A stretch of 64,000 nt of DNA from Ostreococcus lucimarinus. Its lineage: Eukaryota. Both the position numbers and the translations under genes were made by a program. Within the stretch, counting starts at the first letter, position 1; every line of letters starts with the position of its first letter. The stretch is taken from the NCBI GenBank assembly GCA_000092065.1, contig CP000591.1, one strand, 5' to 3'. The notes under the pieces are model-generated. The model was not told the DNA's origin. It searched no databases and was given only the letters and a program-made list of their open reading frames with translations. Below, in pieces: positions 1 to 30,874 of the stretch.

Positions 1-543
1 TGCGTCGTGCACGTGGCGTCGAACGGAGGGTTCATTTTCGCTGGAAATTTAATGCTCAAGGCGGCGAACGGCGACGCGACGGCGCGCACGATTTTTGAGC
101 GGACGAAGGGCGTCGTGTTCGATTGCGCCCCTGGAAATTTGCGGCCCGATATCGTGGCGCGGGCGTTCGCGGCTGTCGTTGGAGGCGCGAGCGCGACGAG
201 TGAGCCATCGCCGTATTTCGAGGTGTTTGCGTCGTGGTTGTTAGGGAGAAGGGTTCTCAGCGAACGTTTGCTGAGGATCGATGAGTTGTGGGGCAAGGCG
301 GGAGCGCCAGAGTCAATCTTGTTGCGTTGCCCGTCGATGTTCATGTACAGCGAAGCCGACGTACTGATTTCCCCACGCGAGATCGAGGCTTTCGCGACGC
401 TCAGACAAGACCAAACCGGTCACAGGAGCACTCTTCACAAGTACGACGACGCTGGGCACTGCGAAATTGGCCGCGACGACTACGAAGATTACAAGAGCAA
501 GGTGACCGATTTCTTAGAGCGCGTCGTGCATTCGGCGGCGTAG
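1..543 (+). CDS. C-terminal fragment of a DUF829/TMEM53-like alpha/beta-hydrolase family protein (5' end lies outside the window)
   Basis: The frame is open from base 1. The ORF-track ORF 7..543 begins with GTG, so it is a continuation rather than a start. The hydrolase-like C-terminal motifs (ILLRCPSMFMYSEADVLI, DDAGHCEIGRDDYEDY) are what I am relying on. Confidence 0.45.
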   Translation, partial: CVVHVASNGGFIFAGNLMLKAANGDATARTIFERTKGVVFDCAPGNLRPDIVARAFAAVVGGASATSEPSPYFEVFASWLLGRRVLSERLLRIDELWGKAGAPESILLRCPSMFMYSEADVLISPREIEAFATLRQDQTGHRSTLHKYDDAGHCEIGRDDYEDYKSKVTDFLERVVHSAA

Positions 544-585
544 CATTTGTTGTATTATTTTCTAGATTTCTAGTCATCGCGGCGT

Positions 586-3555
586 CTAAGTTGATGTTGT
601 TTGCGAGCGCACGCGCACGAGGTCTTTGATTTCTTTCACGAATGATGCGTTTGCGAGTAATTCTTCACACGCAACATGGATTCTGAACCGCCAGTAATGT
701 TTGGGATTCGTTGGGTCGTTGATTGTTTCTTCCAGCGCTGGTCGCTTGGCGTATCGTTCGTCGAGCGCAAGAACGTCTTGAATCGGGAAAATAGCCAGCA
801 CGCTCGGACTTTCGATGTGCTGGGTGAGAATTCGGCGCATCACACTCGGCGTGCACGCGTCGTCATTTCCGCACTGAAACATCTCGTCGTATCGCGCACG
901 GCGTTCGGCGTCTTCTTCCCACCACGCTCGCGTGGTCATGGTGTCGTGACAAGAAGGCGAGCAAACCGTTAAGTATGAATACGTGTGCGGGCGACCGAAT
1001 TCTGAACTTTCGCCCACGGGAGGCATGCGCTGAATGCGTAAACCTAGAATACCAAGTTCATCCATCACAGGCGGCACGCACATCGGTGTGAAGCCGAGGT
1101 CTTCTCCACACACGAGCATTTCCGTCGATTTCAACAGCGCGGGTAACACTTTTCGTGCTTGCTTACGCCATGTGTTCGTTTGACGGCCGAAATAGTAATC
1201 GTTCGACAAATCTCTGAGCGCGTCTCGCATCCAGCCTTCGAGCGCTTGGAAAGACGTCGTCTCTTCGAGCCCGAACCGAGGATAGAAATGGTCGATATTC
1301 TCCACGTCTGTCAAGAGGCATCGGTTTTGAAACAGTTGCATCAATCCAGCGCGAACCAAGAGTTGTTCGTCGTTGAGATGCATCGGGAAATCTCCGCGAG
1401 GTTTCGTTGCGGCAAAAATAGCCTGTTCAGTGTCAAACTCACGTCTGAACTGCCATAATCCGCGCTGATCATCGACCTCGATCATGTATCGATACGCGAT
1501 TTCGTGCACGTTTTCTCCGAAAAGCACCTCTAACTCGTGCCATTGGATATAAGGCTGCGTCAGACGATTGAGATCCCACAACCCACGCGCCGCGAGCTCG
1601 TCGCGCGTGAGCGGTAGCGACGGCCTGAACCGACCCATGCGCCCAGTTGTAGCGCTCGCGGGAAGTTCCCATATTCGGAAGAATCCTAAGATATGATCGA
1701 TACGAATCGCGCTGAAGTACTGCTCCAAGTGTTGCATGCGAGCTCGCCACCAGGCGTAGTCGTCCTCAGCCATAGTTTCCCAGTTGTACGTCGGGAATCC
1801 CCAGTTCTGTCCGTTTGCATCAAAAGCATCGGGCGGCGCGCCCGTGGAAGTATCCATGCGGAACAAACGTGGGTGCATCCACGTATCGACGCTGCGTTTG
1901 TCCACGCCGACCGGAAGATCGCCTTTCAAAATGACACCCTTTGACTTGGCGTATTGCGCCGTCGTAACCAGTTGGGTGTGCAAATTGTACTGGAGGTAAA
2001 AAAAGAATCGTGTCGACTCGTACAAATCGCCTCCCGGGCAATCAATCTTGTCCAAAATTTCTTTCGAGAACGTGGCGAACACACCCCAACGCCAATGTTC
2101 AGCCGTACCGAACAAATCTCGAAGTACGCAAAAGACGCCGTACGGTCGCAGCCACGATTCATTGGCTTTATAAAACGTTTGAAAATCATCAGACGCGAGA
2201 ACCTTTTCGCCGTCGGTATAATAGGCTCGACGCGCGAACGAAAGTTTCTCCTTTACCGTTGCCTCGTAGTCGATCTCTTTCAAGTCCAACGCCACGCGCG
2301 CGGCTTCGATTTCCTCCGCGAGTTCCGCCGTGACGCCGGATAGCTCTTGCACGCGCAGATACATGACGTGAAGCGCGTGCACGGAGAGCGACGAGTACGG
2401 ATAAGAGTCCCAAAAAGTGCCGTACACGCACGTGTCATTTACCGGCAACACCTGCACCACGGACATCCCAGTCGTCGACGCAAAGTCCACCATTTGACGC
2501 AAATCCACAAAGTCGCCGCACCCGACGCTCTGCGCCGTGCGCACGGAGAAGACGGGAAGCGCCATTCCCGAACCTTTCCAAACCCCGCCGTGGGTGAAGA
2601 CGCCATCGCGATGAATCAATCGTCTTTCTACCGCGTTTGCGACGTCCCCGTCGTCGCTCAGCGAACACTCTCGCGCGCCTCGAGCGTCCTCCACGACGTC
2701 GTCGCCGTCCCGAAGGGCGTACGAGTACTCAAACGGCAACTCGGACGCGTCTACTTGGAACTCGATCGTCCACACGTCCGTTCCCGCGCGTTTGCCGAGC
2801 GAGCGCTCACTTTTCAAAGCCGCGCACGACCCACGCACGACGACGCGCTGGGATTTCGTCGCACGAGGCGCCTTAATCTCCAACCGCACGTCTACTCCGG
2901 CGCGCCCGCGCTTCGCCGGCGTCGTCTCCCCATTCGTCTCGCACCGATCTCCCACGACTTCGTGCGCCAAATCCCCGCGTCCCACGTACTCCGGCGTCAC
3001 CACGCTCGCGAACGCCTTGCGTTCGAACACGTGCTCCGCCGTGGCGCGCGAATTCCACTCGTCCGCGCACTCCACGCCTCGCTCGCCGCGCGTCCCGCGC
3101 CCGTCCTCCAACTCCAACGTCCGCACCTCCCCGTCCCACGCGATCACGTGTTCGCGCTCGTCGATCACCGCGTACCTATACTCGATCGTCCTCCTCCCGT
3201 TCGCGCTTTTCCCGCTCCCGAGCCCTCCGTCCTCCGCGCGCGTCTCCGCTCGCCACTCGAGCTCGCGTTCGCCGCGTCCCGCCCGACACCGCATCCGCAG
3301 CCCTCTCGCCGGGTTCCATCGTCCCAGCGCCGCGTCCGCGCCGCACACCACGAGATTCTCCCCCCAATTCGTCCAGTACGACGTTCGAAACGCGATCGTC
3401 GTCCCATCGCGCGCGCGCGTCGCCGTCGCGCCCGACGCCGTTAATCCGTCCGCGTCCTCGTCGGCGTCTTCGCGCCGTCGTTCCGTCGTCACCGTCGCGA
3501 GCGTCGCGTCGAGCGCGCGCGCGAGCGATGCGACGTCGTTCGGCGCGTCTCTCAT
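586..3555 (-). CDS. DPE2: Cytosolic disproportionating enzyme 2-type 4-alpha-glucanotransferase (N-terminal CBM20 starch-binding domains + GH77)
   Basis: The long minus ORF 586..4350 was trimmed to the first plausible ATG (MRDAPNDV, ATG at 3555). It carries CBM20 signatures (YWTNWGENLVVCGADAALGRWNP; VWTIEFQV) and a GH77 amylomaltase core (GFFRIWELP, DHILGF, GEDLGFTP). The R-rich N-terminal extension in the ORF track was judged non-coding. Confidence 0.8.
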   Translation of the reverse strand: MRDAPNDVASLARALDATLATVTTERRREDADEDADGLTASGATATRARDGTTIAFRTSYWTNWGENLVVCGADAALGRWNPARGLRMRCRAGRGERELEWRAETRAEDGGLGSGKSANGRRTIEYRYAVIDEREHVIAWDGEVRTLELEDGRGTRGERGVECADEWNSRATAEHVFERKAFASVVTPEYVGRGDLAHEVVGDRCETNGETTPAKRGRAGVDVRLEIKAPRATKSQRVVVRGSCAALKSERSLGKRAGTDVWTIEFQVDASELPFEYSYALRDGDDVVEDARGARECSLSDDGDVANAVERRLIHRDGVFTHGGVWKGSGMALPVFSVRTAQSVGCGDFVDLRQMVDFASTTGMSVVQVLPVNDTCVYGTFWDSYPYSSLSVHALHVMYLRVQELSGVTAELAEEIEAARVALDLKEIDYEATVKEKLSFARRAYYTDGEKVLASDDFQTFYKANESWLRPYGVFCVLRDLFGTAEHWRWGVFATFSKEILDKIDCPGGDLYESTRFFFYLQYNLHTQLVTTAQYAKSKGVILKGDLPVGVDKRSVDTWMHPRLFRMDTSTGAPPDAFDANGQNWGFPTYNWETMAEDDYAWWRARMQHLEQYFSAIRIDHILGFFRIWELPASATTGRMGRFRPSLPLTRDELAARGLWDLNRLTQPYIQWHELEVLFGENVHEIAYRYMIEVDDQRGLWQFRREFDTEQAIFAATKPRGDFPMHLNDEQLLVRAGLMQLFQNRCLLTDVENIDHFYPRFGLEETTSFQALEGWMRDALRDLSNDYYFGRQTNTWRKQARKVLPALLKSTEMLVCGEDLGFTPMCVPPVMDELGILGLRIQRMPPVGESSEFGRPHTYSYLTVCSPSCHDTMTTRAWWEEDAERRARYDEMFQCGNDDACTPSVMRRILTQHIESPSVLAIFPIQDVLALDERYAKRPALEETINDPTNPKHYWRFRIHVACEELLANASFVKEIKDLVRVRSQTTST

Positions 3556-21151: not shown

Positions 21152-22389
21152 TTACACTCCCGTTACCTTGCCCTGAATGGAGTCTTCATCGGGCAAATCC
21201 TCGAACAGCTTCATCCAGTTCGGAATCCCAGCTCCAGACTTCCAAATCGTACCGTTCTTCGCCACGCCGAAGAAGACGTCGCGAACCGTTGGATCAAAAC
21301 CGGACGATTCGATTTGATTGATGATCCAGCGCTTCCAAGCTCCATTGTCCACAGGCATGAGCTTCAGCTTCTTGTCACCGCCGAGCAGCGCAGCCGCCGC
21401 ACTAGCGGTGAGCTCGGTGGTCTTTGAAGTCTTCGCTTTGCGTCTTCGCTGACCAAACGGCAACTCGTCTCCGGATTCTTCGCCGCTCTCGTCCATGGCC
21501 ACCGGTAAGATGACAATCTTATTCTTCGTCAACTTTTCCTTGAACCTCTCCAAACTTTCGAGGGTTTTTGTGATATGCTCTTCGCTCCCCGCGACGATGA
21601 AGACGCGATACGATCCGCGCAAGCGCGAAAACAACACATTCTTATCGCCGTCGCCGAGCGTCACGCCCAAGCGCCCCAACTCTTCCTCGCGCTCAACTTT
21701 CTGAATGATTTTCTCGCGCCCTTGAAGTTCACCGCGCAATAACACCGAGAACGCGAGGAGCCCGACGGTATTGATTCCTAAATTCGTCACCGTCTCGGTC
21801 AAATCGGGCGCGCCCTCGCCCCCCTGCACCGCCTTGATCAGACGCGTGCCGATGATGAACAAACCCAAACCCGCCCCCGCGGCTAATCCTCCGAATAAAT
21901 AAAGCTTGAAGAATCGAAACGGTTCTTGCGCCTCCGCGCGCAAATTCACCATCGTCGACGCGCCTCGACCTCCCTTCACCGCCGCCGCGACTTCTCCGTA
22001 CTGCGTCGACGCTCGAAACGCGTCCAAATCCGGGTCGCTCGTCAGCACCTTGAACTTCAAATTATGCACGTTCACCGCCGCGATGAGATCGTCCTTCGCC
22101 TCGTCGTACATGTTCATCTTGACGTATCCACACGCTCGATTATAACTCGCCGCCCTGGCCTCGTCTTCGTTCGGTTTCATCTCCAGCGCTCGCGTGAACG
22201 CCCGCGTCGCCGCCTCGTGTTCGCCCCTCTCGAACAATCGCAGTCCCTCGTTCACCGCCGTCGCCGCGTCCGCGTACGACGCGCGCGTCGTCGTCGACGA
22301 CGATTCGTCCGACGCGCGCGTTCGAGTCGCCGTTCGCACGCTCCCCGCGCGTCGTCGTCGCCTCGCGCCCGCGTCGTCCATCGTCGTCG

Positions 22390-22422
<33 letters not shown>

Positions 22423-22531
22423 CGCGCGTCGCGCCGGCGCGTCCCGCGTCGCGCGACGTCGCGCGCGCGCGTCGCCCCGCGCGCGTCGCGACGACCCGCG
22501 GCGCGCTCGCGCGGACGCGCGCCGTCGACAT
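21152..22531 (-). CDS. TPR-containing two-TM thylakoid-type protein, LPA1/REP27-like (PSII assembly factor-like)
   Basis: A presequence with a poly-Thr tract is followed by TPR repeats (EGLRLFERGEHEAATRAFTRALEMKPNEDEARAASYNRACGYVKMNMYDEA). There are two hydrophobic helices and a conserved Trp-rich C-terminal domain. The start was trimmed to the ATG at 22531. Confidence 0.5.
22376..22422. repeat. (GTC)n microsatellite inside a CDS, encoding the poly-Thr tract of the LPA1-like presequence
   Basis: It is a run of tcgtcgtcgtcgtcatcgtcgtcgtcgtcgtcgtcgtcgtc. Confidence 0.8.
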
Positions 22532-22590
22532 CGCGCGATGGGCGACGCGATAAGGCGCGGTGTGACGCCGAGGACGGCGATTTCGTCTTC

Positions 22591-22606
22591 GTATGGGCAA
22601 ACAGTG
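22591..22606 (+). promoter_or_regulatory. Recurrent motif GTATGGGCAAACAGTG (copy 3 of 5)
   Basis: It lies in the LPA1-like / O-methyltransferase divergent spacer, 112 nt upstream of the ATG at 22718. Confidence 0.4.
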
Positions 22607-22717
22607 TGATTCCTAAACCCCAGGACGGACGCGACGTCCGGACGCGCCGTCGCCGACCGCGCGCGACGCGCCGCAGGTGGCGACGCGCGCGAACGCGTCG
22701 GCGCGAGAAAGCGCGCG

Positions 22718-23692
22718 ATGGCGGCGCGAGCGACGCGCGCGCGACCGGGACGCGCGGTCGAGCGCGCGAGACGCGACGACGCGCGGAAAGGATGGCGAGG
22801 CAGAGGACGCGCGCGGGGCGCGACGAGGACGAAGACGACGACGACGACGACGACGACGGAGACGAGCGAGGAAGAGGAAGCGACGTGGACGCGAGCGAAA
22901 ATCGCGGTGCGACGACGGATCGAGGGCGGGGACGAAGACGTGTACGCGAACGCGCTGGCGAGCGAGGAGGCGACGACGCGGGACGACGACGAGACGCGAG
23001 CGACGACGTCGACGTCGAGCGCGACGCACGCGATGGATGTGTTGGCGTTCAGACGTCTGAGCGCGATGATGAATACGTTTGAGAAGAATGTGGAGACGCA
23101 CGGGATCGCGAGACAGGTGGTGGTGATCACGGCTGGGGCGGATACGCGGGCGTTTCGATTGCCGTTTCCGAGCGGAACGGCGATTTTCGAGTGCGCGGAC
23201 GGGACGGTGCACACGAAAGCGGCAGCCGTGATGAAGAAAGTTGGGGCGAAACCTTCGAAGGGGTGCTCGCACAGGCGCGTGCCGGTGGATGCGACCGCGA
23301 CAGACGCGGCTTATGGTGATTTAGAGGAACGTTTGGAACGCGCGGGATACCGCCCAGACGTGCGCTCGTTGTGGTTGGTGCAAGACGTACACGCGTGGGA
23401 TCACTCGCGGTTGTCGAATTTCATCACCGAAAGTGCGGATTTGATGACAACCGGGAGCGAACTCATCATAGACGCCAGCGCGTTGACGTCGACGGACGAC
23501 ATCATTCGTCGAGAATTTGCGTCAAACGGCGTCATGCCCGAAGTCGTGCGCATCCCCGCCGACGAAGGTCGAGAGCCCATTCGTTTAGTCTTAGGATGCG
23601 CCCAGCGAGTGTCGCTGAAGGAGTCGGAGTATTATCGTGAGCAATTGCGCGCCGCCGAGGACGAGGCTGACGAAGACGGCTTTGAGGACTGA
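22718..23692 (+). CDS. Leucine-carboxyl-methyltransferase-superfamily O-methyltransferase (bacterial TcmP/ML2640-like)
   Basis: The family signature VVVITAGADTRAFRL is present, with a WLVQDV motif downstream. The ATG at 22718 was verified. Confidence 0.55.
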   Translation: MAARATRARPGRAVERARRDDARKGWRGRGRARGATRTKTTTTTTTTETSEEEEATWTRAKIAVRRRIEGGDEDVYANALASEEATTRDDDETRATTSTSSATHAMDVLAFRRLSAMMNTFEKNVETHGIARQVVVITAGADTRAFRLPFPSGTAIFECADGTVHTKAAAVMKKVGAKPSKGCSHRRVPVDATATDAAYGDLEERLERAGYRPDVRSLWLVQDVHAWDHSRLSNFITESADLMTTGSELIIDASALTSTDDIIRREFASNGVMPEVVRIPADEGREPIRLVLGCAQRVSLKESEYYREQLRAAEDEADEDGFED

Positions 23693-23735: not shown

Positions 23736-26700
23736 TTACAACTTTGACTTCTTCCCGTCCTTTTCCTTCTTCTCCTTCTTCTCTTTCTTCTCTTTCTTCG
23801 CCTTCTTCGCCTTCTTCTCTTTCTTAAATTCATGCGTTTTACGCTTTTTGTCTTTCACCTCAGCCTCTGGCGCGTCTTCGTCCGCTTCGGAATCCTCGAA
23901 GACCACTTTTTTGCCTTGCGAGTCGCCGCCGCCTTGCTCCATCCAATCGATCGCCGTGTGATCGCTCGTGGAGTCGAGTGGTGAACTTATAGCTTCAGTT
24001 TCGATCAAATCATCTAGCCCTCTCGGATCAGATGCATTTTGAGCGCCGATACCCTTCTCCCGAAGCACTCGAAGCGTCTTTTGCATGTCAAATTCAGCTT
24101 CTCGTTGCGCTTTGCGCGCGGGCTGCAGCGCGAGCGGACTGTGCATCTCTTTCGCCTTTTCGCGCGATCCAACCACCATTCGTGATGAACGACTGAGCAT
24201 TTTTTGCTCAAATATCGGTAGAGCAAAGTCAAATCCAGAGTTTGGGCCGTGCTTTCGTACTCCATCAACCAAGGTGTCGGCAAGAAGGACGGCGTCACTC
24301 ATGGCTTGATTCGCACCTTGCGCCTTGAATGGAGTCATCGGGTGAGCGGCGTCACCAATCAACGTGACGCGACGCTTTGATTCATCAGTAGGGCGGAGTA
24401 ATACCGGATCGAGCAATTCCCTGTCGTACACTGGGTAGCCCGACATACAATCCAGCGGCGTGTTGCGAAGCAAATCTGGAACAGGGTCATGCCACTGCGC
24501 ACAACGCCGAACTATTTCCTCCTTTAGCGTCGTCGCATCTTTCGTGTATTGACGCGCTGTTTCTTCAGAGCATGGAAAAGATAGCTGCCACATAGTCGAA
24601 GTAGTCGTGAAGGGCATGGCATACAACCGTGTGGCGCCGTCGACCGTCTCAAAAATACGTCGATGCGCGAGCGGTACGTTCATTATCTTCTCATCCACGA
24701 TTCCTAGCACGACACACAATCCAACATAGTTCAGACGATCTCCTGGGAGGTCTAAATGACGTCGCACGGTTGAGAATATCCCGTCCGACCCCACGAGTAG
24801 AGCTCCATCGAGCTCGGTACCATCCGTGGACGCGACGGAGACTCCATTTTCGCGAGCCACAAAGCTCTTGAGCTTGCTATTCCAGCGAATAGTTCCCGGT
24901 TGCACAGCTTCGATGATGCGAGATCGAAGCACTTGACGGGGTATATGAATGAATCGTCCAGAATTTTGCACCTCGCGACGTTCACGCGACTTTGCTCCAA
25001 AAGCCTCTCCGAAAAATCCAATAATGTGCCCCTCTGCGTCAAAGGTGTAATGTGACGTCGAAGGAGCATCGTCTTGAGATATGTCAACGCCCATGGCTTG
25101 TATAGCGTCTTGGGCTTGCACAGTGAGCCCATATCCTTGAGCGCGCGCGTCAAAGCTTTCATCTGACTCCAACACGATGACATCGAATCCTTTGCTCTGC
25201 AATGCCACGGCTGCCGCCGCGCCTCCTATGCCCCCACCAGCGATTATAACTCGTCCACATTTCGAAACGTCGACGGGAGGACCGTATTTTTCATTGTTCG
25301 CGCCGTGTCGTTGCTGCTTGAGATGCTTCACCACACTATGCTGTCCAGCCGTCGTAAACGCCCACTCCAAATTGTTCAACTCTTCATCACTGAACTCATC
25401 CATGAGTCTCTTCACTGATCGAGCCAGCGCGGTAAACAACGCATCGTTTACTTGTCCGGAGTTTGCAAACGTCCAAGCGACGTTAACCAGATCTTGAGCG
25501 TTGAAATTATCCGCTTGGTGCTCGGCCGCGGATGCCAATGCGACAAAGAGAGCCTCGCTGAGTTGGCTTGCTTGGTCAAACGTCCAAACTATGTTGGCGA
25601 TATTCGGCGCATCTAAATCGTTCAGTCGATGATCCAATATCGATTTTCGCGCTGCAACAAAAAGTTTGGCATCATATCGACCGAGTTTTGCAAACGCCCA
25701 CGTGGTATTCACGAGGTCTTGGGTGTTGAAATCAGCCAAGCACCGTTCTGACAGGCTCGCCAACGAAGTGAATAACTTTTCGTCGTGATGACACGCCTTC
25801 CCGAAAGCCCAGGCGGTATTGGCAATATCCTGAGAATTAAACTCACTCGCATTCGCGGTCATTCTGCGCTCGATAGAACGACCGAACTTGGAAAAAAGTT
25901 CGGCGTCCAGATGCCCACATTTGGAAAAAGACCAAACCGTGTTCGTCAAGCCTTGCGCGTTCAAGGCGCTCAGGTGCCGCTCTGCGTGCTTGGCGAGCGT
26001 CGTAAACAATTTTGCGTCGTATTGTCCCGCCTTAGCGAACGCGTAGATGAGATTTGAAAAGTCTTGCGCGTTGAAATCATCCAAGCGTTCTTGCGCCTTC
26101 TGCGACATTGCGCGAAACAAACCAACGTCGACAAAGCCCGACTTTGCGAACCCCCAAGCCGTGTTCGACAAACCTTGCGTGTTGAACTCCCCCAAACGTC
26201 TCTCCACACACCGCGCCAGAGCTTTAAACAGCCTCGCGTCGGCGTGTCCCACCGAGGCGAACGCCCAGCAAGTATTCGTGAGCTCTTGCGAATTAAATCG
26301 CTCCGCGTGTCGCTCCGCCATCCTCGCCAACGCGCTAAACAATCGTTCACACTTGTAATCCGCCTTGGCGAACGCCCACGCAATGTTCGCCAACTCTTGC
26401 CCTCGATCGATCCCTCCCAAGTGTCGCTCTATCGCCTTCGCGAGCGCGGCGAACAACTCCTCGCTCCCTCCTCCCTTGGCCGCGCCGTGCGCCACGTTCG
26501 CCAGCTCCCGTCCCCCCATCTTCGATCGCTCATCCCTCACGAATTCGATCGTGTGCGCGATCAATCGTTCGTGCGCATCATTCATCCCGTCCCCATCGCT
26601 CGAGCTCGCCCGTTCACCGTCGCATCGCATCCGTCCGACGCTCGTCCACACCGCCGACAGGTGAATGTGATTCATCCGTCCCGCGCTCTCGTCTCGCAGC

Positions 26701-27008
26701 GCGTACACCTCGCGCAACGATCGCGCGTTCTTCACGTTCGCCGTCAGCAACGCCGGCGAGGGCGCGTTCCCGCGTCTCGCTCCTCCGCTCCCCCCCGTCG
26801 TCGTTCCCATCGTCGTCATCGCGTTCGTTTTCCTCGCCGCCGGCGCCGGCGTCGCGCCCAGTCCGCACGCCGCCCGCGCGTCCGCGCGCGACATCCCTCC
26901 GACCTCGAGCGCGCGCGCGCGCGCCTTCGCGCGCTCCTTCTTCCCCATCTTCTTTTTCTTCGCCGTCGCCGTCGTCGTCGCGTCGCCGTCGCCGTCGCCG
27001 TCGCCCAT
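23736..27008 (-). CDS. Octotricopeptide-repeat (OPR) protein fused to a C-terminal FAD-dependent monooxygenase domain, with a Lys/Glu-rich tail
   Basis: About 12 tandem repeats of roughly 38 aa of the type FNxQ[DE]LxNTxWAFAKxGxxDxxLFxALA form the N-terminal part. They are followed in the same uninterrupted frame by a Rossmann FAD motif (VIIAGGGIGGAAAAVALQSKGFDVIVLE), LVGSDGIFSTVRRHL and DAAHPMTPFKAQGANQAMSDA. The ORF-track start at 27017 is GTG, and the first ATG is at 27008. The tail KKEKKAKKAKKEKKEKKEKKEK is encoded by the polypyrimidine tract at 23749..23825. Confidence 0.65.
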   Translation of the reverse strand: MGDGDGDGDATTTATAKKKKMGKKERAKARARALEVGGMSRADARAACGLGATPAPAARKTNAMTTMGTTTGGSGGARRGNAPSPALLTANVKNARSLREVYALRDESAGRMNHIHLSAVWTSVGRMRCDGERASSSDGDGMNDAHERLIAHTIEFVRDERSKMGGRELANVAHGAAKGGGSEELFAALAKAIERHLGGIDRGQELANIAWAFAKADYKCERLFSALARMAERHAERFNSQELTNTCWAFASVGHADARLFKALARCVERRLGEFNTQGLSNTAWGFAKSGFVDVGLFRAMSQKAQERLDDFNAQDFSNLIYAFAKAGQYDAKLFTTLAKHAERHLSALNAQGLTNTVWSFSKCGHLDAELFSKFGRSIERRMTANASEFNSQDIANTAWAFGKACHHDEKLFTSLASLSERCLADFNTQDLVNTTWAFAKLGRYDAKLFVAARKSILDHRLNDLDAPNIANIVWTFDQASQLSEALFVALASAAEHQADNFNAQDLVNVAWTFANSGQVNDALFTALARSVKRLMDEFSDEELNNLEWAFTTAGQHSVVKHLKQQRHGANNEKYGPPVDVSKCGRVIIAGGGIGGAAAAVALQSKGFDVIVLESDESFDARAQGYGLTVQAQDAIQAMGVDISQDDAPSTSHYTFDAEGHIIGFFGEAFGAKSRERREVQNSGRFIHIPRQVLRSRIIEAVQPGTIRWNSKLKSFVARENGVSVASTDGTELDGALLVGSDGIFSTVRRHLDLPGDRLNYVGLCVVLGIVDEKIMNVPLAHRRIFETVDGATRLYAMPFTTTSTMWQLSFPCSEETARQYTKDATTLKEEIVRRCAQWHDPVPDLLRNTPLDCMSGYPVYDRELLDPVLLRPTDESKRRVTLIGDAAHPMTPFKAQGANQAMSDAVLLADTLVDGVRKHGPNSGFDFALPIFEQKMLSRSSRMVVGSREKAKEMHSPLALQPARKAQREAEFDMQKTLRVLREKGIGAQNASDPRGLDDLIETEAISSPLDSTSDHTAIDWMEQGGGDSQGKKVVFEDSEADEDAPEAEVKDKKRKTHEFKKEKKAKKAKKEKKEKKEKKEKDGKKSKL

Positions 27009-27046
27009 CGTCGCCACTGCGCGTCGCGCACTGCGCGTTCGGCGTC

Positions 27047-27763
27047 ATGGCGCCGGGCGTCGAGATGGTGCGCGTCGAGCGCGCCGAGCGCGCGTACGAT
27101 CGAGAGAAAGCGCTCGGTCGAGACGCCGCGAGCGTGTTCCCGTCGCTCGCGCGCGACGGCGACGGCGCCGCCGACGGAGACGCGCGAAAAGACGACGACG
27201 ACGCGACGCGCAAAAAGTTTGTCACCGAGAGCGAGCTCGAACGACTTCGCGCGCTCGGCGGGAGCGACGGCGGGGACGCGAGCGGCGCGAGCGACGCGCG
27301 AAACGACGACGCGAACGCGGGTAAACCGCTGTATCAAATCCTGGCCGAGCGCCGGGAAGAGAAAGATCGCGAGTTTCAAGAGCAGTGGGCGTCGATGAAG
27401 GTTGGGAAGAATAAACCGCTGGACGAGGAGGAGGTGGAATTTTTAGATGAAATCGAGAGCGAACGACGGGCGGCGGAGACGAAGAGGAAGCGCGAGGAAG
27501 ACGGTGAGTTAGAGGCGTTTAAACGGGCGCAGCGAGGGGACGATCAGGGAGGGATGACGACGACGAAGGGCGACGGAGAGACGGCGACGACGAGCGCGCC
27601 GGCGGCGGTGGTGGCGAGGAAGCGACCGTCCGCGGGCGTGCGAGCGAAACCGAAGACGGCGATCGCGAGCGAGACGAAGGAGACGGACGATGCGAGCGAG
27701 GGGCTCGGCGGTCTTTTGGGCGATTACGGCTCCGATTCGGACGACGACATCGCGGACTCGTAG
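27047..27763 (+). CDS. NIP30/FAM192A-like (PSME3-interacting) protein
   Basis: It is an acidic protein with the conserved NIP30 N-domain pattern (KPLYQILAERREEKDREFQEQW...KNKPLDEEEVEFLDEI). The ATG at 27047 is only 38 nt from the divergent OPR gene ATG. Confidence 0.5.
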   Translation: MAPGVEMVRVERAERAYDREKALGRDAASVFPSLARDGDGAADGDARKDDDDATRKKFVTESELERLRALGGSDGGDASGASDARNDDANAGKPLYQILAERREEKDREFQEQWASMKVGKNKPLDEEEVEFLDEIESERRAAETKRKREEDGELEAFKRAQRGDDQGGMTTTKGDGETATTSAPAAVVARKRPSAGVRAKPKTAIASETKETDDASEGLGGLLGDYGSDSDDDIADS

Positions 27764-27874
27764 TTCGGCGGCGCAAAGGCGGCGCGTCGAATTCGCTTCA
27801 TGTTATTTTGATGAACCAATCAAGCCTCATTCGCGCGCGCGCGTCGTCGTCAGCGTCGTCGACGTCGCGAAGAC

Positions 27875-30874
27875 ATGATCGCATCCTCGCTTGGCGTCGC
27901 CCGAACGTCGTTCGAGCCGCGTCAGAGCGCCGCGGAACGACGAATACGACGCGTTTCTGCGCACCAGTCCACAACCCCCGAAGGCGTTCGCGGATGCGTC
28001 GTCGTGCGACGCCACCGCGGGCGTTCGAGCTCGCGTTGCGTCGCGCGCGCGGTGCATTACGCATGTGATGACGCCACGCCGTCGTGCGTCGCGCGCGATG
28101 CGCACGCGTGCGGACGAAATGGTGCGAGATACGATCCACTCAGGTTGTTGCTTCGGGACGGGACGTCCACGCGCGAGACGACGCGGCGACTGGTGCGATG
28201 TGTGCGATGCGGCGCCGCGGGCGAGAGTCGCGAAAAGAATGAGATGGTAGCGTCGAGCTGTGGGAAAGCGGACGAACGCGTGCGAGGGAAGGTGCGGCGA
28301 GCGTTGCTCGCGAGCGCGGCGAGCGCGGGCGGGTTCGCGGGACGCGCGGGAGCGTTATCGGGAGACGGCGGTTCTGGAGGCGCGGTGGGCGATGGTGGTG
28401 GGGGCGACGACGGTGGTTCGTTCGGTTCAAGTGGAGATAAACCCATATTTGCGTCCAGTGGTCGAAGTGGAGATGGAATTTTGGAGGAAGTGGTGATGCT
28501 TGACGTGCACGGCATGCACTGCGGCGGATGCGCGGCGAGCGTGCGGAAAATCTTGGAGGGCGATGACGCCGTGCGAAGCGCGTCGGTGAATTTGGCCAAT
28601 GAGTCCGCCATGGTACGCATTAATTTAGCGATGGGCAAGCTTGAGGGAGGTGAATTTGAAAATGCCGTGAAGGAGGCGGCAAAGAGTGTCGGCACCAAGT
28701 TGGCTGAGCTCGTCACTGCCGCAGGGTTCCCGACGTCTCTGCGCGACGCTGGTGGAGTCGCTGTTGCGGGAGTTACGGGTGCCGAGGCGACGAAACTAAA
28801 GAGAGACGAACGTTTGCGACGGATTAAAGAAAGCACGCAGCGCGTGATCGTGGCTTGGGCTCTCGCGAGCGCGTGCTTGTTGGGACACGTTTCACATTTT
28901 TTCCACGCGAGCGCGCCGTGGCTCAGAGTCTTGCACAGTAATCCCGTTCACATCACGCTCTCGCTCTTTGCCATGGCAGGACCAGGGCGTCAGATTTTGA
29001 TTGATGGCTGGCAAAGTTTGCGACGAGGAGGTCCGAATATGAACACGTTGGTATCCCTCGGAGCCATGGCATCTTTTTCGATGAGCACGGCGGCCATGAT
29101 GCTCCCAGGCTTAGGTTGGCCCACGTTCTTCGAGGAGCCCGTCATGTTACTAGCATTCGTACTTCTTGGGAGAGCAGTCGAGGAACGTGCCAAGCTTCAA
29201 GCAACGAGTGATATGTCTGCGCTACTGAATCTAGTGCCAGAGACCGCTCGCTTGGTGTCATCGACTTCCACGGCAAACGGAGATGAGCCATACTATCGTA
29301 CAGTTCCGACGTCTGTCATCGAAGTAAAGGATAAAATCATCGTTTTACCTGGAGATAGAATTCCCATCGATGGCACGGTAGTGAGTGGATGCAGTACGGT
29401 GGATGAAGCCGCCATCACTGGCGAGCCAATCCCTCGGCCGAAAAAAGCCGGCGACACGGTAGCGGCGGGAACAGTGAACTGTGATGGCGTTTTGACGATT
29501 GAAGTCGTGTCTTCAGGAGAAGAAACGCAAGTAGCTGGTATCGTTCGCATGGTGGAGTCAGCGCAACAACGCGAAGCGCCAGTGCAGCGACTTGCAGATC
29601 AAGTCTCTGGCAAGTTTGTGTACGGTGTGATGGCAGCGAGCGCGGCGACGTTCACGTTTTGGAGCACCGTCGGCACGAAAGTCTTCCCCGGTGTTCTTGC
29701 GACAGCTGCTTCGGCAACTAATGCACCAATTTTGATTGCACTTCAAATGACGGCGTCAGTCTTAGTCGTTGCGTGCCCGTGTGCTCTTGGTTTGGCGACG
29801 CCGACGGCGGTACTCGTCGGCACGGCGCTCGGCGCCCGCCATGGCCTTCTCATTCGCGGTGGAGACATCTTAGAAAAAGCCAACAATTTAGACACCGTTA
29901 TTTTCGACAAAACTGGAACGTTGACTATTGGTAAACCAGTATTGACGGAAACGCGCACAAGCGGGGGCTTTAGCGACGCTGAAATCATCGCTCTTGCGGG
30001 AGCGGTCGAGCGAAACTGTCGCCACCCGTTGGCGTTAGCCATCACCGAAGCGGCTGATAAGCAAGGAATTCCCCGGCATTCAGTTGATGAAGGAACGTTC
30101 AAGCAGGAGCCCGGCGCTGGAGCGAGTGCTGTGGTGAATAAGAAGCTGGTTTCCGTCGGCACAACCTTCTACATTCAAGGCAACAATACCGTGCCGATGG
30201 AGCTGATCAATGCCGTGGACAACCCAGGTCGCACGCCGGTGTACGTCGGAATCGATGGCAAAATCGTGGGTGTTTTAGAGATGCAAGACGAAATTCGTAA
30301 GGACGCGGCCGAAACCATCAAGCGACTTCATGCGAAGAATATACAAACTATCATGATTTCGGGCGACAGGCTTGAAACGGCCCAAGCAGTAGGCAAACTC
30401 GTGGGCATCGATGAAAAGTACGTATACGGGGATGTACGACCCGAGGGAAAAGCTGAACTCGTACAAGACTTTCAGTCGAAGGGCAAATGCGTCGCAATGG
30501 TCGGTGATGGTATCAACGACGCCGCAGCTTTGGCACAGGCAGACATCGGCATCGCCATGGCGGGCGGCGTCGGCGCCGCAAGCGAAGTCGCTTCCATCGT
30601 CTTGCTCGGCGATAGATTACCGCAAGTCGGCGATGCGATCGACTTGAGCAGAGCAACGTTTAACAAAATTAAGCAGAATCTGTGTTGGGCTTTTGGGTAC
30701 AACCTGATCGGTATTCCGATAGCCGCTGGCGCTTTATTGCCAGCATATGGATTGTCGCTCACGCCATCCGTGGCGGGCGCCATCATGGGATTTTCATCCC
30801 TTGGTGTCATGGGGAACTCTTTACTTTTGAAACTAAAAGGTCGAGAGCTTTCGAAGGCCGAGGAAGATGATTAA
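27875..30874 (+). CDS. Copper-transporting P1B-type ATPase (PAA/HMA, plastid-type) with a presequence and an HMA metal-binding domain
   Basis: An HMA domain (VHGMHCGGCAASVRKILE) is followed by an actuator TGEP motif, the CPC site (VACPCALGLATP), DKTGTLT, GDGINDAAAL and MAGG. Confidence 0.9.
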   Translation: MIASSLGVARTSFEPRQSAAERRIRRVSAHQSTTPEGVRGCVVVRRHRGRSSSRCVARAVHYACDDATPSCVARDAHACGRNGARYDPLRLLLRDGTSTRETTRRLVRCVRCGAAGESREKNEMVASSCGKADERVRGKVRRALLASAASAGGFAGRAGALSGDGGSGGAVGDGGGGDDGGSFGSSGDKPIFASSGRSGDGILEEVVMLDVHGMHCGGCAASVRKILEGDDAVRSASVNLANESAMVRINLAMGKLEGGEFENAVKEAAKSVGTKLAELVTAAGFPTSLRDAGGVAVAGVTGAEATKLKRDERLRRIKESTQRVIVAWALASACLLGHVSHFFHASAPWLRVLHSNPVHITLSLFAMAGPGRQILIDGWQSLRRGGPNMNTLVSLGAMASFSMSTAAMMLPGLGWPTFFEEPVMLLAFVLLGRAVEERAKLQATSDMSALLNLVPETARLVSSTSTANGDEPYYRTVPTSVIEVKDKIIVLPGDRIPIDGTVVSGCSTVDEAAITGEPIPRPKKAGDTVAAGTVNCDGVLTIEVVSSGEETQVAGIVRMVESAQQREAPVQRLADQVSGKFVYGVMAASAATFTFWSTVGTKVFPGVLATAASATNAPILIALQMTASVLVVACPCALGLATPTAVLVGTALGARHGLLIRGGDILEKANNLDTVIFDKTGTLTIGKPVLTETRTSGGFSDAEIIALAGAVERNCRHPLALAITEAADKQGIPRHSVDEGTFKQEPGAGASAVVNKKLVSVGTTFYIQGNNTVPMELINAVDNPGRTPVYVGIDGKIVGVLEMQDEIRKDAAETIKRLHAKNIQTIMISGDRLETAQAVGKLVGIDEKYVYGDVRPEGKAELVQDFQSKGKCVAMVGDGINDAAALAQADIGIAMAGGVGAASEVASIVLLGDRLPQVGDAIDLSRATFNKIKQNLCWAFGYNLIGIPIAAGALLPAYGLSLTPSVAGAIMGFSSLGVMGNSLLLKLKGRELSKAEEDD

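Follow-up and report, generated by a model that had tools for sequence, protein, structure and literature searches.

The window, a stretch of 64,000 nucleotides from contig CP000591.1 of Ostreococcus lucimarinus (assembly GCA_000092065.1), carries on its minus strand one long gene in which a helical repeat array, a flavin monooxygenase and a charged tail are encoded in a single uninterrupted frame (Table 1). The frame begins at a GTG in the ORF listing, and translation from its first ATG gives a protein of 1090 amino acids. An in-frame stop 13 codons before this ATG means that the N-terminus cannot extend further within this exon. An earlier, sequence-only reading of the same DNA had recognised the continuous frame and its span correctly; the strand is here corrected to minus. 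The AlphaFold model of the whole chain has a pLDDT of 83 and a pTM of 0.77.

Table 1. Features of the fused gene, with residues of its product and positions in the window.
Feature	Residues	Positions	Strand	Basis
Open reading frame from GTG start		23736..27017	-	ORF listing of the window
Complete CDS, 1090 codons + stop, uninterrupted		23736..27008	-	ORF, translation
Variable leader	1-85	26754..27008	-	translation, predicted structure, leader comparison, microsatellite scan
(TCGCCG)n microsatellite encoding the acidic GDGDGD run		26960-27005		
KKKK-GKKERAKARARALEVGGMSRADARAACGL segment of the leader	17-50	26859-26960		
Solenoid N-terminal cap, conserved, degenerate helical hairpins (ALLTANVKNA ... 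NHIHLSAVW)	86-162	26523..26753	-	conservation, model
11 HPR/FAST_1-type repeats of 37 aa	163-566	25311..26522	-	profile, spacing, fold
Array-enzyme linker, short, conserved, ungapped	567-585	25254..25310	-	family alignment
Class-A FAD-dependent monooxygenase domain	586-960	24129..25253	-	profiles, motifs, fold
GGGIGG (GxGxxG)	591-596	25221-25238	-	translated coordinates
GSDG (DG motif)	740-743	24780-24791	-	translated coordinates
GDAAHPMTPFKAQGAN (GD(x6)P-type motif)	885-900	24309-24356	-	translated coordinates
Helical C-terminal extension of the enzyme, conserved	961-1010	23979..24128	-	conservation, model
Disordered tail	1011-1090	23739..23978	-	translation, model, microsatellite scan
Period-9 (CTTCTTCTC)x8.7 repeat encoding KKEKKAKKAKKEKKEKKEKKEKDGKKSKL		23748-23825	+	microsatellite scan

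The repeats follow the consensus FNxQ(D/E)LxNTAWAFAKxGxxDxxLFxxLAxxxExxLxx. The W/Y/H anchors of the WAFAK motif fall at residues 174, 211, 248, 285, 322, 359, 400, 437, 475, 512 and 549, with spacings of 37, 37, 37, 37, 37, 41, 37, 38, 37 and 37, so that 11 clear repeats can be counted, and the model folds residues 85-572 into 28 helices, or 14 hairpins. The earlier estimate of about 12 repeats is fair in the light of both figures, but the period is 37 residues and not 38, and the assignment of the repeats to the OPR class has to be abandoned. HPR proteins are defined by tandem helical-hairpin repeats of 37 residues, and OPR proteins in the strict sense by repeats of 38-40 residues with a conserved PPPEW (PMC6212722). 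Inspection of all the repeats in the array found PPPEW in none, and since they are also 37 residues long, the array is not OPR in the strict sense. The ‘HPR protein’ of a lobster preprint is a different thing, a peptide repeat of 37 residues without relation to this family.

Rather, the array is of the HPR/FAST_1/RESC6 type. It matches Pfam FAST_1 with 75.2 bits against a cut-off of 27.4, and in sequence-level searches it matches RESC6 (E = 1e-22) and the Chlamydomonas mitoribosomal protein mL115 (E = 5e-6); its fold agrees with that of RESC6 at a target-normalised TM-score of 0.75 (Foldseek). The HPR/FASTK family to which these proteins belong also includes human FASTK and FASTKD1-5, Plasmodium PbHPR1 and the Toxoplasma mitoribosomal HPR proteins. 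The window protein resembles them in its tandem hairpins, its WAFAK-type core and its FAST_1 score. Unlike them it has no RAP or FAST_2 domain (no Pfam match at E up to 1 in the whole protein), a flavin monooxygenase stands in place of the nuclease-like domain, there is no organellar presequence, and the array varies far less between lineages than is usual in the family. The solenoid of about 480 residues shows 66% column conservation across supergroups. Repeat positions 6, 8, 11, 13 and 17 vary between repeats and are conserved among orthologues, a pattern that would fit a fixed ligand. The charge of the array was rejected as a test of RNA binding, as the fusion arrays (pI 5.1-6.7, median 5.78) and control HPR/FAST-RAP arrays from the same search (median pI 5.81) are equally acidic.

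The second half of the protein is a complete class-A FAD monooxygenase, as had been proposed. Pfam FAD_binding_3 covers residues 587-926 with 73.1 bits against a cut-off of 22, the three signature motifs are invariant or almost so across 54 family members, and the domain is of the p-hydroxybenzoate-hydroxylase type by profile and by fold (target-normalised Foldseek TM-scores of about 0.75-0.84 with TetX, PhzS, NicC and HpxO). With the cofactor and catalytic motifs all kept, it is apparently an active, catalytically intact enzyme. The label ‘zeaxanthin-epoxidase/salicylate-hydroxylase-like’ given to it previously holds for the broad class and not for a specific enzyme family, in a comparison that included no zeaxanthin epoxidase model. 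The enzyme misses the curated equivalog cut-offs for salicylate hydroxylase (52 vs 446 bits), 3-hydroxybenzoate 6-monooxygenase, HpxO (102 vs 500), UbiH/COQ6 and Tet(X) (49 vs 750), and its best enzyme-family match, PRK06753, reaches 118.6 bits against a cut-off of 365. It thus shares fold and motifs with NicC, HpxO, TetX, PhzS and 3-hydroxybenzoate 6-hydroxylase (E about 1e-8 to 1e-23), but at 21-25% identity only and with all NCBIfam equivalog scores far below cut-off, and to the architecture of these small-molecule monooxygenases it adds a 560-residue N-terminal solenoid and a helical C-terminal extension of 50 residues. This extension ends in the family motif DPRGLD; it is a feature of the HPR-fused clade, has a partial counterpart in the class with leucine-rich repeats (LRRs) and is lacking in the bacterial relatives. 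Two identities considered for C-terminal modules were discarded. A LYAR-type winged helix, considered for a ‘WWEAHP’ C-terminal module, found no Pfam match, and for a Tudor/SH3 barrel a beta-rich C-terminal module gave sub-threshold matches only (SH3-C_UBE2O 0.0027, Tudor-knot 0.007).

The fusion of these two halves is real, arose once and is under strong purifying selection. Both Pfam domains are present in about 60 full-length relatives, whose identity is 50-72% and whose coverage is about 85%. Single ORFs or complete transcripts that contain the fusion come from Bathycoccus, Cymbomonas, Pycnococcus, a cryptophyte, dinoflagellates and a bolidophyte, and haptophytes have it as partial gene models only. 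For example, Bathycoccus prasinos, the closest named relative (61%), encodes it on a chromosome as a single ORF of 1091 amino acids among neighbour genes unlike those in the window, and Teleaulax and Gymnodinium have complete transcriptome ORFs. The closest relative overall is an ENA metagenomic contig (95% identity) with the same neighbouring genes, and a single Bathycoccus cluster comprises 398 public sequences. The HPR-fused enzymes group together in a single clade, with 100% bootstrap and an average identity of 72%. The linker is without gaps across the family (mean conservation 0.53), and together with the pLDDT and pTM of the model this indicates that array and enzyme probably form a rigid unit. 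A joining of adjacent genes by a sequencing or assembly frameshift or a lost stop codon could draw on the frameshift-prone microsatellite ends and on the 95%-identical relative P0001, which reads the tail in a different frame. However, the 19-residue conserved linker at the junction leaves no room for a terminator or promoter, and dozens of assemblies made independently, from genomes and from transcriptomes, show the same architecture; the artefact reading is effectively refuted and retains next to no probability. As the sequence-only reading had supposed, literature searches aimed at the architecture yielded no published description of an HPR-type array joined to a redox enzyme.

The two ends of the protein bear on where it acts. 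The leader opens with the acidic GDGDGD run, its KKKK-GKKERAKARARALEVGGMSRADARAACGL segment is modelled as two helices (pLDDT about 90), and the rest is disordered and Thr/Gly-rich. A SAP/HeH motif considered for the helical segment is unsupported, with sub-threshold Pfam matches only, mainly to DUF2011. A KKKK-GKKER motif is kept in Mamiellophyceae-like relatives, and leaders of other lineages are RGG/GKG-rich. The tail is disordered in the AlphaFold model over its 80 residues, an acidic stretch followed by a Lys/Glu-rich run; the microsatellite origin claimed for this run is borne out by the period-9 repeat listed in Table 1. Relatives have K/R-rich tails of similar character, and the tails carry NLS-like basic clusters about 50 times denser than in control HPR-RAP proteins.

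Every HPR, FASTK and OPR protein characterised so far is organellar (PMC6212722), and the named members of the fusion come almost all from plastid-bearing algae. Both facts would suit a factor that enters the plastid or mitochondrion to work on the transcripts there, as OPR, HPR and FASTK proteins do, a setting that the earlier assignment had implied. Against this, the leaders are acidic, Lys-rich or Gly/Arg-rich: in a comparison of 39 sequences, 29 are RG/KG-rich or have a KKK run, two have a hydrophobic N-terminal stretch, and signal peptides are absent from those of complex-plastid lineages. The upstream stop also excludes a hidden presequence in this exon. Moreover, the full repeat-enzyme unit is present in Amoebophrya AT5.2, which is without a plastid and has no detectable mtDNA (PMC6482013). 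Leaders, NLS-like clusters and the Amoebophrya member contradict an organellar setting, and such a role for the window protein is highly improbable. Lacking organellar targeting features, the protein seems to act outside organelles, and a nuclear localisation is predicted from sequence composition alone.

The enzyme subfamily as a whole bears four mutually exclusive N-terminal modules, each in a clade of its own. One is the HPR array of the fusion clade; two sister clades carry, respectively, a Bmt2/SAMTOR domain (PF11968, which has no Pfam match in the window protein) and LRRs; and the fourth, in Bacteroidota, is a double CxxCxGxG zinc finger with a basic linker. The uncharacterised Bacteroidota proteins of about 480 amino acids (e.g. 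Tenacibaculum bernardetii P0257) are the closest non-fused relatives. They share 40-42% identity with the window protein over the enzyme domain and 139 of the 245 fusion-conserved positions, all signature motifs included, but an 88-residue zinc-finger-like module with its linker replaces the HPR array, and the C-terminal helical extension is missing. The swapping of four binding-type modules on one enzyme suggests that it is targeted to a macromolecule. The Bmt2 fusion was rejected as clean evidence for rRNA; its partner domain matches solved structures of the SAM sensor SAMTOR (E = 4e-16), which makes the link ambiguous. The gene context of the bacterial relatives was likewise rejected as a clue to the substrate. 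Across 80 loci there is no conserved operon, the commonest neighbour cluster occurs in just 11, and the neighbours are generic (a beta-lactamase-like hydrolase, Crp or AraC regulators, SDR), with nothing related to RNA.

The flavin domain may instead act on a soluble or lipid aromatic metabolite, the solenoid being a scaffold, a regulatory lid or an anchor and not an RNA binder. All characterised neighbours in sequence and fold are such small-molecule hydroxylases (NicC, HpxO, TetX, PhzS, TrlE, AbsH3), the bacterial relatives stand alone, now and then beside AraC/Crp regulators and SDR, and a hydroxylase with a SAM-binding methyltransferase-fold domain is a classic pathway pairing. Hard to explain in this way are a solenoid so conserved across supergroups, the RGG/KKKK leaders and NLS-like tails, and the exchange of four binding-type modules within the subfamily; nor does any curated small-molecule enzyme family match at its cut-off. 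A metabolite hydroxylase is therefore possible though on the whole doubtful.

The best explanation at present is a nucleocytoplasmic oxygenase tethered to RNA or to an RNP, held tentatively and at somewhat less than even probability. HPR/FASTK proteins are RNA-binding and ribosome-associated (PMC6212722; PMC11652630). In the same search, arrays homologous to that of the window protein occur in one chain with pseudouridine synthase, RRM, RAP and peptidase-U32 domains, and these fusions, with the FAST_1, RESC6 and mL115 matches, may be counted toward a link with RNA. The HPR solenoid of about 14 hairpins, helped by the basic leader and tail, would dock the enzyme on a specific conserved RNA or RNP in the nucleus, nucleolus or cytosol, and the flavin domain, with NAD(P)H and O2, would oxygenate a site on that particle, which could lie on a nucleobase or on a residue of an associated protein. 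A reasonable candidate for the particle would be pre-ribosomal or ribosomal RNA. Several points weigh against the tethered oxygenase: class-A flavin monooxygenases are overwhelmingly small-molecule hydroxylases and, to our knowledge, none acts on RNA; the nearest solved structures are antibiotic and natural-product enzymes; the bacterial gene context is not RNA-related; and the array is acidic, although no more so than the controls. The suggestion of an RNA-tethered or RNA-modifying oxidase, made in the earlier reading, is thus plausible but unproven. One relative has a DDX21-type DEAD-box helicase within the same ORF; this too would speak for a link with RNA, but it is a single sequence and could reflect a lost stop codon.

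A macromolecular target could also be a protein. MICAL, in which a class-A monooxygenase fold is fused to binding domains and acts on a macromolecule, is a precedent for this, and the window protein could likewise bind a protein partner through its solenoid and oxidise a residue of it or make local H2O2. The LRRs of the sister clade are typically protein-binding, and RESC6-like solenoids also serve as protein scaffolds inside complexes. However, a Pfam search found no CH, LIM or other MICAL domain, those relatives of the array that have been characterised associate with RNA, and there is no pointer to a specific protein target, so that a protein-directed redox enzyme is decidedly unlikely. The two proteins are alike in tying the same fold to binding modules; the window protein differs in its RNA-type solenoid partner and in an enzyme nearest to the NicC/HpxO/TetX-like branch, and MICAL may serve as an analogy of mechanism only.

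The tethered oxygenase can be taken further, to a reading that is itself unlikely though slightly less so than the protein-directed one. The protein would then be the first class-A flavin monooxygenase on RNA and the first HPR/FAST-type protein outside an organelle, a nucleolar or nucleocytoplasmic, HPR-guided enzyme that hydroxylates or otherwise oxygenates a base of an RNA conserved in marine algae, whether cytosolic rRNA or a different non-coding RNA, and the Bmt2/SAMTOR, LRR and zinc-finger modules would lead the sister clades to this target or to related ones.

PPR, OPR and HPR/FASTK repeat binders have so far been regarded as instruments of gene expression in organelles, and the catalytic domains found on them have been deaminases or nucleases. 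An array kept with an oxygen-activating flavoenzyme at 50-72% identity in green algae, cryptophytes, dinoflagellates and stramenopiles would, if the target is RNA or the ribosome, represent a new enzymatic route to RNA/RNP oxidation, a compartment of the cell new to HPR proteins and a natural programmable solenoid that delivers redox chemistry. Should the target be a metabolite, the algal enzyme family would still be widespread, abundant and wholly uncharacterised. The swapping of the N-terminal modules makes the question of function approachable by comparison of the clades.

Among known systems, PPR-DYW and OPR-RAP proteins offer a similar division of labour, in which N-terminal repeats would choose a target and a C-terminal enzyme would act on it. 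The window protein differs from them in having neither PPR motifs nor PPPEW-type OPR repeats of 38-40 residues, in carrying a redox flavoprotein and not a deaminase or nuclease, and in being apparently not organellar. Oxygenases or hydroxylases joined to RNA-binding modules are found in ALKBH8 (RRM, AlkB oxygenase and methyltransferase) and in RlhA/TrhP (peptidase-U32), which act on tRNA or rRNA. Unlike these, the window protein has a FAD/NAD(P)H enzyme in place of a 2-oxoglutarate/Fe or U32 one, and no RRM or methyltransferase domain. The parallel with RlhA/TrhP extends to Chrysophaeum, in which a peptidase-U32 domain is joined to an HPR array of this kind (P0064).

The fusion gene lies on the minus strand, a correction to the sequence-only reading, and its first ATG, at 27008, opens 1090 codons followed by a stop (Table). 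A longer N-terminus in that exon is ruled out because an in-frame stop sits 13 codons upstream of the ATG. The Pfam search, a check which that reading had proposed, matched FAST_1 (75.2 bits against a cut-off of 27.4) and FAD_binding_3 (73.1 bits against 22), and together with the uninterrupted frame and the three class-A motifs it bears out the claim that repeats run into a complete monooxygenase. An AlphaFold2 model built from a 54-sequence family alignment (mean pLDDT 83.2, pTM 0.77) comprises 28 helices arranged as 14 hairpins, followed by an alpha/beta flavoenzyme fold, with disorder limited to four regions. As had been noted, the Lys/Glu tail stems from a microsatellite. A metagenomic relative, P0001 (95% identical), reads the corresponding purine-rich microsatellite in a different frame, giving KKERRKRRKRRRKR in place of KKEKKEKKEKK. 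This repeat yields mostly K, E or R whatever the frame, so a frameshift would likely leave the tail charged, as in P0001.

Table. Positions of the fusion gene, its neighbours and its protein features
Feature	Position	Strand	Remark
Convergent LCM methyltransferase-like ORF	22718-23692
Gap from its end to the fusion-gene stop codon	23693-23735		43 bp
Fusion ORF	23736-27017	minus	one long ORF
Microsatellite (CTTCTTCTC)x8.7	23748-23825		encodes the Lys/Glu tail
(TCGCCG)x7.8 repeat	26960-27005		encodes the N-terminal GDGDGD run
Gap from the fusion-gene start codon to the Fyv6-like start	27009-27046		38 bp
Divergent Fyv6-like ORF	27047-27763
G+C-rich zones	~22000-23250, 26250-28500		G+C 65-76%
FAST_1 match	residues ~160-560		Pfam
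Helical hairpins	residues 85-572		AlphaFold2 model
FAD_binding_3 match	residues 587-926		Pfam
Class-A motif GGGIGG	residues 591-596
Class-A motif GSDG	residues 740-743
Class-A motif GDAAHPMTPFKAQGAN	residues 885-900
Disordered regions	residues 1-18, 56-79, 623-625, 1012-1090		AlphaFold2 model

A search of the whole window protein against 5.8 billion proteins recovered about 60 full-length relatives carrying both domains at 50-72% identity across some 85% of the query, plus the one metagenomic relative at 95%. Named sources include the green algae Bathycoccus prasinos (61%), Cymbomonas tetramitiformis and Pycnococcus provasolii, the bolidophyte Triparma laevis, several Symbiodinium species, the cryptophyte Teleaulax amphioxeia and Gymnodinium smaydae; the haptophytes Emiliania, Chrysochromulina and Prymnesium contribute truncated gene models. 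For Teleaulax and Gymnodinium the sequences are transcriptome-assembly ORFs flagged complete, which gives single-transcript evidence in relatives. Synteny had been suggested as a means of finding two separate genes in related Mamiellophyceae; on the Bathycoccus chromosome both halves lie in one 1091-aa ORF, flanked by genes that differ from those in the window. The 95% relative shares the window's neighbours (HMA ATPase, Fyv6-like gene, LCM methyltransferase, TPR/DUF3493). Conservation within the family extends from residue 86 to about 1002, with variation only at the extreme termini; columns average a conservation of 0.66 across the repeats and 0.79 across the enzyme, and not one gap falls in the 19-residue linker. 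The many two-domain relatives, the complete transcriptome ORFs and the ungapped linker dismiss an artificial fusion, which is now scarcely credible.

The array had been called OPR. Registered on the conserved WAFAK aromatic, successive repeats are spaced by 37, 37, 37, 37, 37, 41, 37, 38, 37 and 37 residues, which gives 11 clear units with a period of 37, a second correction to the sequence-only reading. Helical HPR repeats are defined as 37-residue units that lack the PPPEW of the 38-40-residue OPR and overlap Pfam FAST_1 (PMC6212722). The window array has this length, has no PPPEW and matches FAST_1; it also resembles trypanosome RESC6 (sequence E = 1e-22, fold target-normalised TM-score 0.75) and matches the Chlamydomonas mitoribosomal protein mL115, and Pfam finds no RAP domain in the window protein. 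Hence, a repeat array is present as proposed, but it is of the HPR/FAST type, a sister class of OPR, and not strict OPR.

Fold and motifs place the enzyme half among the class-A flavoprotein monooxygenases. Among solved structures, NicC, TrlE, PhzS, TetX and HpxO lie closest, at 21-25% identity, and every NCBIfam equivalog falls far short of its cut-off (best 118.6 bits against 365). Searching the enzyme half by itself placed nearest to it a compact family of non-fused proteins of roughly 480 aa from Bacteroidota (Tenacibaculum, Flavobacterium, Formosa, Saprospiraceae), to which a few eukaryotic proteins belong, for example in the diatom Epithemia. Identity between these relatives and the query is 40-42%, and 139 of the 245 fusion-conserved positions are common to both, every signature motif included. 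No curated family or solved structure matched them closely, and no conserved operon appeared across 80 sampled loci. The enzyme subfamily is uncharacterised.

The N-termini of this subfamily are varied. An exhaustive HMMER search of the enzyme half against 1.84 billion cluster representatives gave 507 proteins at E <= 1e-30, and extensions were classified for the best 150. These were bare (<40 residues) in 38, of 40-119 residues and unclassified in 15 (some being truncated HPR fusions), Cys-rich and of zinc-finger type in 33, full HPR arrays in 3 (at the 50% clustering level) and otherwise long (at least 120 residues) in 25, while 36 were fragments without the GxGxxG motif. Bacterial and diatom relatives (P0254-P0324; P0246, P0247) carry an 88-residue N-terminal module in which two CxxCxGxG motifs flank the strongly basic stretch KKxxRxxKKVRLxYQ; its sequence resembles a zinc finger, and Pfam DnaJ_CXXCXGXG matches it only below threshold. 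PF11968 (Bmt2) is found in six long extensions, scoring 31-42 bits where the cut-off is 20; this architecture, a sister clade within the subfamily, proved to be a family of about 30 clusters (P0347, P0404, P0429, P0453, P0388, P0419 and P0463, the last from Ochromonas danica, and about 25 more). LRR_6-type leucine-rich repeats are the second recurrent partner, Pfam-confirmed in P0442 and P0394; P0391, P0412, P0443 and P0383 have LRR-type N-termini by eye only, and Pfam finds no LRR in P0391.

A neighbour-joining tree built on the enzyme domain recovers the four module classes as separate clades, each in 100/100 bootstraps, implying that each fusion arose once and was then retained. Mean within-clade identity is by far the highest in the HPR-fused clade (72%), followed by the zinc finger (67%), LRR (49%) and Bmt2/SAMTOR (47%) clades. 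A catalytic core that repeatedly gains binding-type N-terminal modules shows the pattern that would be expected of a macromolecule-directed enzyme. A soluble catabolic hydroxylase is not expected to show it, and a small-molecule hydroxylase whose repeats serve as a scaffold domain, in keeping with the class-A fold, is a less likely reading that still deserves real weight. MICAL shows the pattern too; a MICAL-like, protein-directed oxidase is improbable here.

The Bmt2-type partner requires care. Yeast Bmt2 is a nucleolar, pre-ribosome-associated methyltransferase that makes m1A2142 in 25S rRNA (PMC3664796). Alone, such a partner would be strong guilt by association. The partner domain, however, matches solved SAMTOR structures (E = 4e-16). 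SAMTOR is a SAM sensor upstream of mTORC1 and belongs to the same Pfam family as Bmt2. The honest reading of its sequence is a 'Bmt2/SAMTOR-family SAM-binding domain', and the link is compatible with rRNA methylation, SAM sensing, or a hydroxylate-then-methylate pair on any substrate.

HPR proteins are RNA binders (PMC6212722), and five of them lie at the periphery of the Toxoplasma mitoribosome (PMC11652630). The whole-protein search also found homologous, algal HPR arrays fused to pseudouridine synthase (with SAP), RRM, RAP and peptidase-U32 (P0064, P0086, P0110, P0115, P0068, P0073, P0084, P0114), which looks like a wider toolkit of putative HPR-guided RNA enzymes outside Apicomplexa. The RNA hydroxylases RlhA and TrhP belong to the peptidase U32 family. 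In Chrysophaeum the array is joined to peptidase U32 plus RAP, and the pseudouridine synthase fusion occurs once with SAP domains. Within the array, helix-A positions N9, W12, F14 and K16 are uniform in nearly all repeats, and positions 6, 8, 11, 13 and 17 vary between repeats and are conserved across orthologues, as a fixed, specific ligand would impose. P0007, on an ENA metagenome scaffold (L081 121-5658), is a continuous 5538-nt ORF of 1845 codons encoding a DEAD-box helicase with a DDX21/DDX50-type dimerisation domain, then a KKKK leader, the HPR array and the monooxygenase. Either three parts are fused here or a stop codon has been lost between two head-to-tail genes; as a singleton, P0007 carries little weight.

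Organelles are the setting of every HPR, FASTK and OPR protein yet characterised (PMC6212722), and the sequence-only reading had implied the same here. To judge from its sequences, the HPR-monooxygenase family does not look organellar because of its leaders, its basic tail clusters and an Amoebophrya member. The window protein and its Mamiellophyceae-like relatives open with an acidic GDGDGD run, and KKKK-GKKER comes next; across the 39 members whose start is intact, the leader is RG/KG-rich (GAR/RGG-like) or contains KKK in 29, and just 2 show any hydrophobic N-terminal stretch. In dinoflagellates, cryptophytes, haptophytes and stramenopiles a signal peptide is needed for plastid import. Family tails contain strong basic clusters, defined as at least 5 K/R in 6 residues, at 4.35 per 1000 residues versus 0.08 in 57 ordinary HPR/FAST-RAP control proteins from the same search. 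Amoebophrya sp. AT5.2, whose plastid has been lost and in which nothing points to a mitochondrial genome (PMC6482013), has the complete leader, HPR and enzyme unit, aligned to query residues 73-999, in P0326 (gene model g2397.t1). This 2871-aa model may join adjacent genes, and host contamination is improbable but conceivable. An organellar RNA factor thus has the precedent of its repeat class and is otherwise very doubtful.

Upstream of its HPR-monooxygenase, P0326 carries zf-C2HC5, TRIP4_3rd and ASCH (TRIP4/ASC-1-type) and an AlkB-like 2OG-Fe(II) oxygenase; this layout may stem from a merged gene model or reflect clustered genes for RNA repair and RNA modification. Relatives outside the Mamiellophyceae-like group have, in place of the K/E tail, either of two small conserved C-terminal modules, each preceded by NLS-like K/R stretches and neither matched by Pfam above threshold. 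One is beta-rich (WHKCVLLKxKKSGKHKVxWxDG...QPR; P0011, P0017, P0020, P0026, P0028, P0029, P0032, P0036, P0039, P0043, P0053 and P0057, the last with two copies) and the other reads GFxW...LRKxVL...WWEAHPxELKALF (P0008, P0015, P0021, P0031, P0037, P0040, P0042, P0047).

From sequence and predicted structure, the analysis shows a single, rigid, conserved polypeptide that joins an intact flavin monooxygenase to an HPR solenoid and lacks recognisable organellar targeting features. We tentatively propose, with somewhat less than even confidence, that the solenoid, together with the basic disordered termini, would anchor the enzyme on a conserved RNA or RNP, whether nuclear, nucleolar or cytosolic, and that the flavin domain would then oxygenate a group on that particle.

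Literature searches aimed at the HPR-array-monooxygenase architecture found no published description, in line with the earlier remark that no described coupling of such repeats to a redox enzyme was known. The main text of a 2026 survey of green-lineage alpha-solenoid proteins contains neither 'monooxygenase' nor 'FAD', and databases label the family sequences only 'FAD-binding domain-containing protein', 'auaG' or 'hydroxylase-like'. We rate the architecture as a combination of already-known kinds, either a helical-repeat binder with a catalytic domain or a class-A monooxygenase with a targeting module, with a real chance of something more unusual. In the literature consulted on other aspects of the family, no description of the SAMTOR-like domain-monooxygenase fusion was met.

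The fusion gene is very tightly packed between its neighbours (Table), and the 95% relative shows the same packing. The G+C-rich zones, at gene 5' ends and between genes, contain many short CG-rich tandem repeats, as against a G+C of 50-53% in the fusion-gene body, and strand skews reverse at the divergent gene starts.
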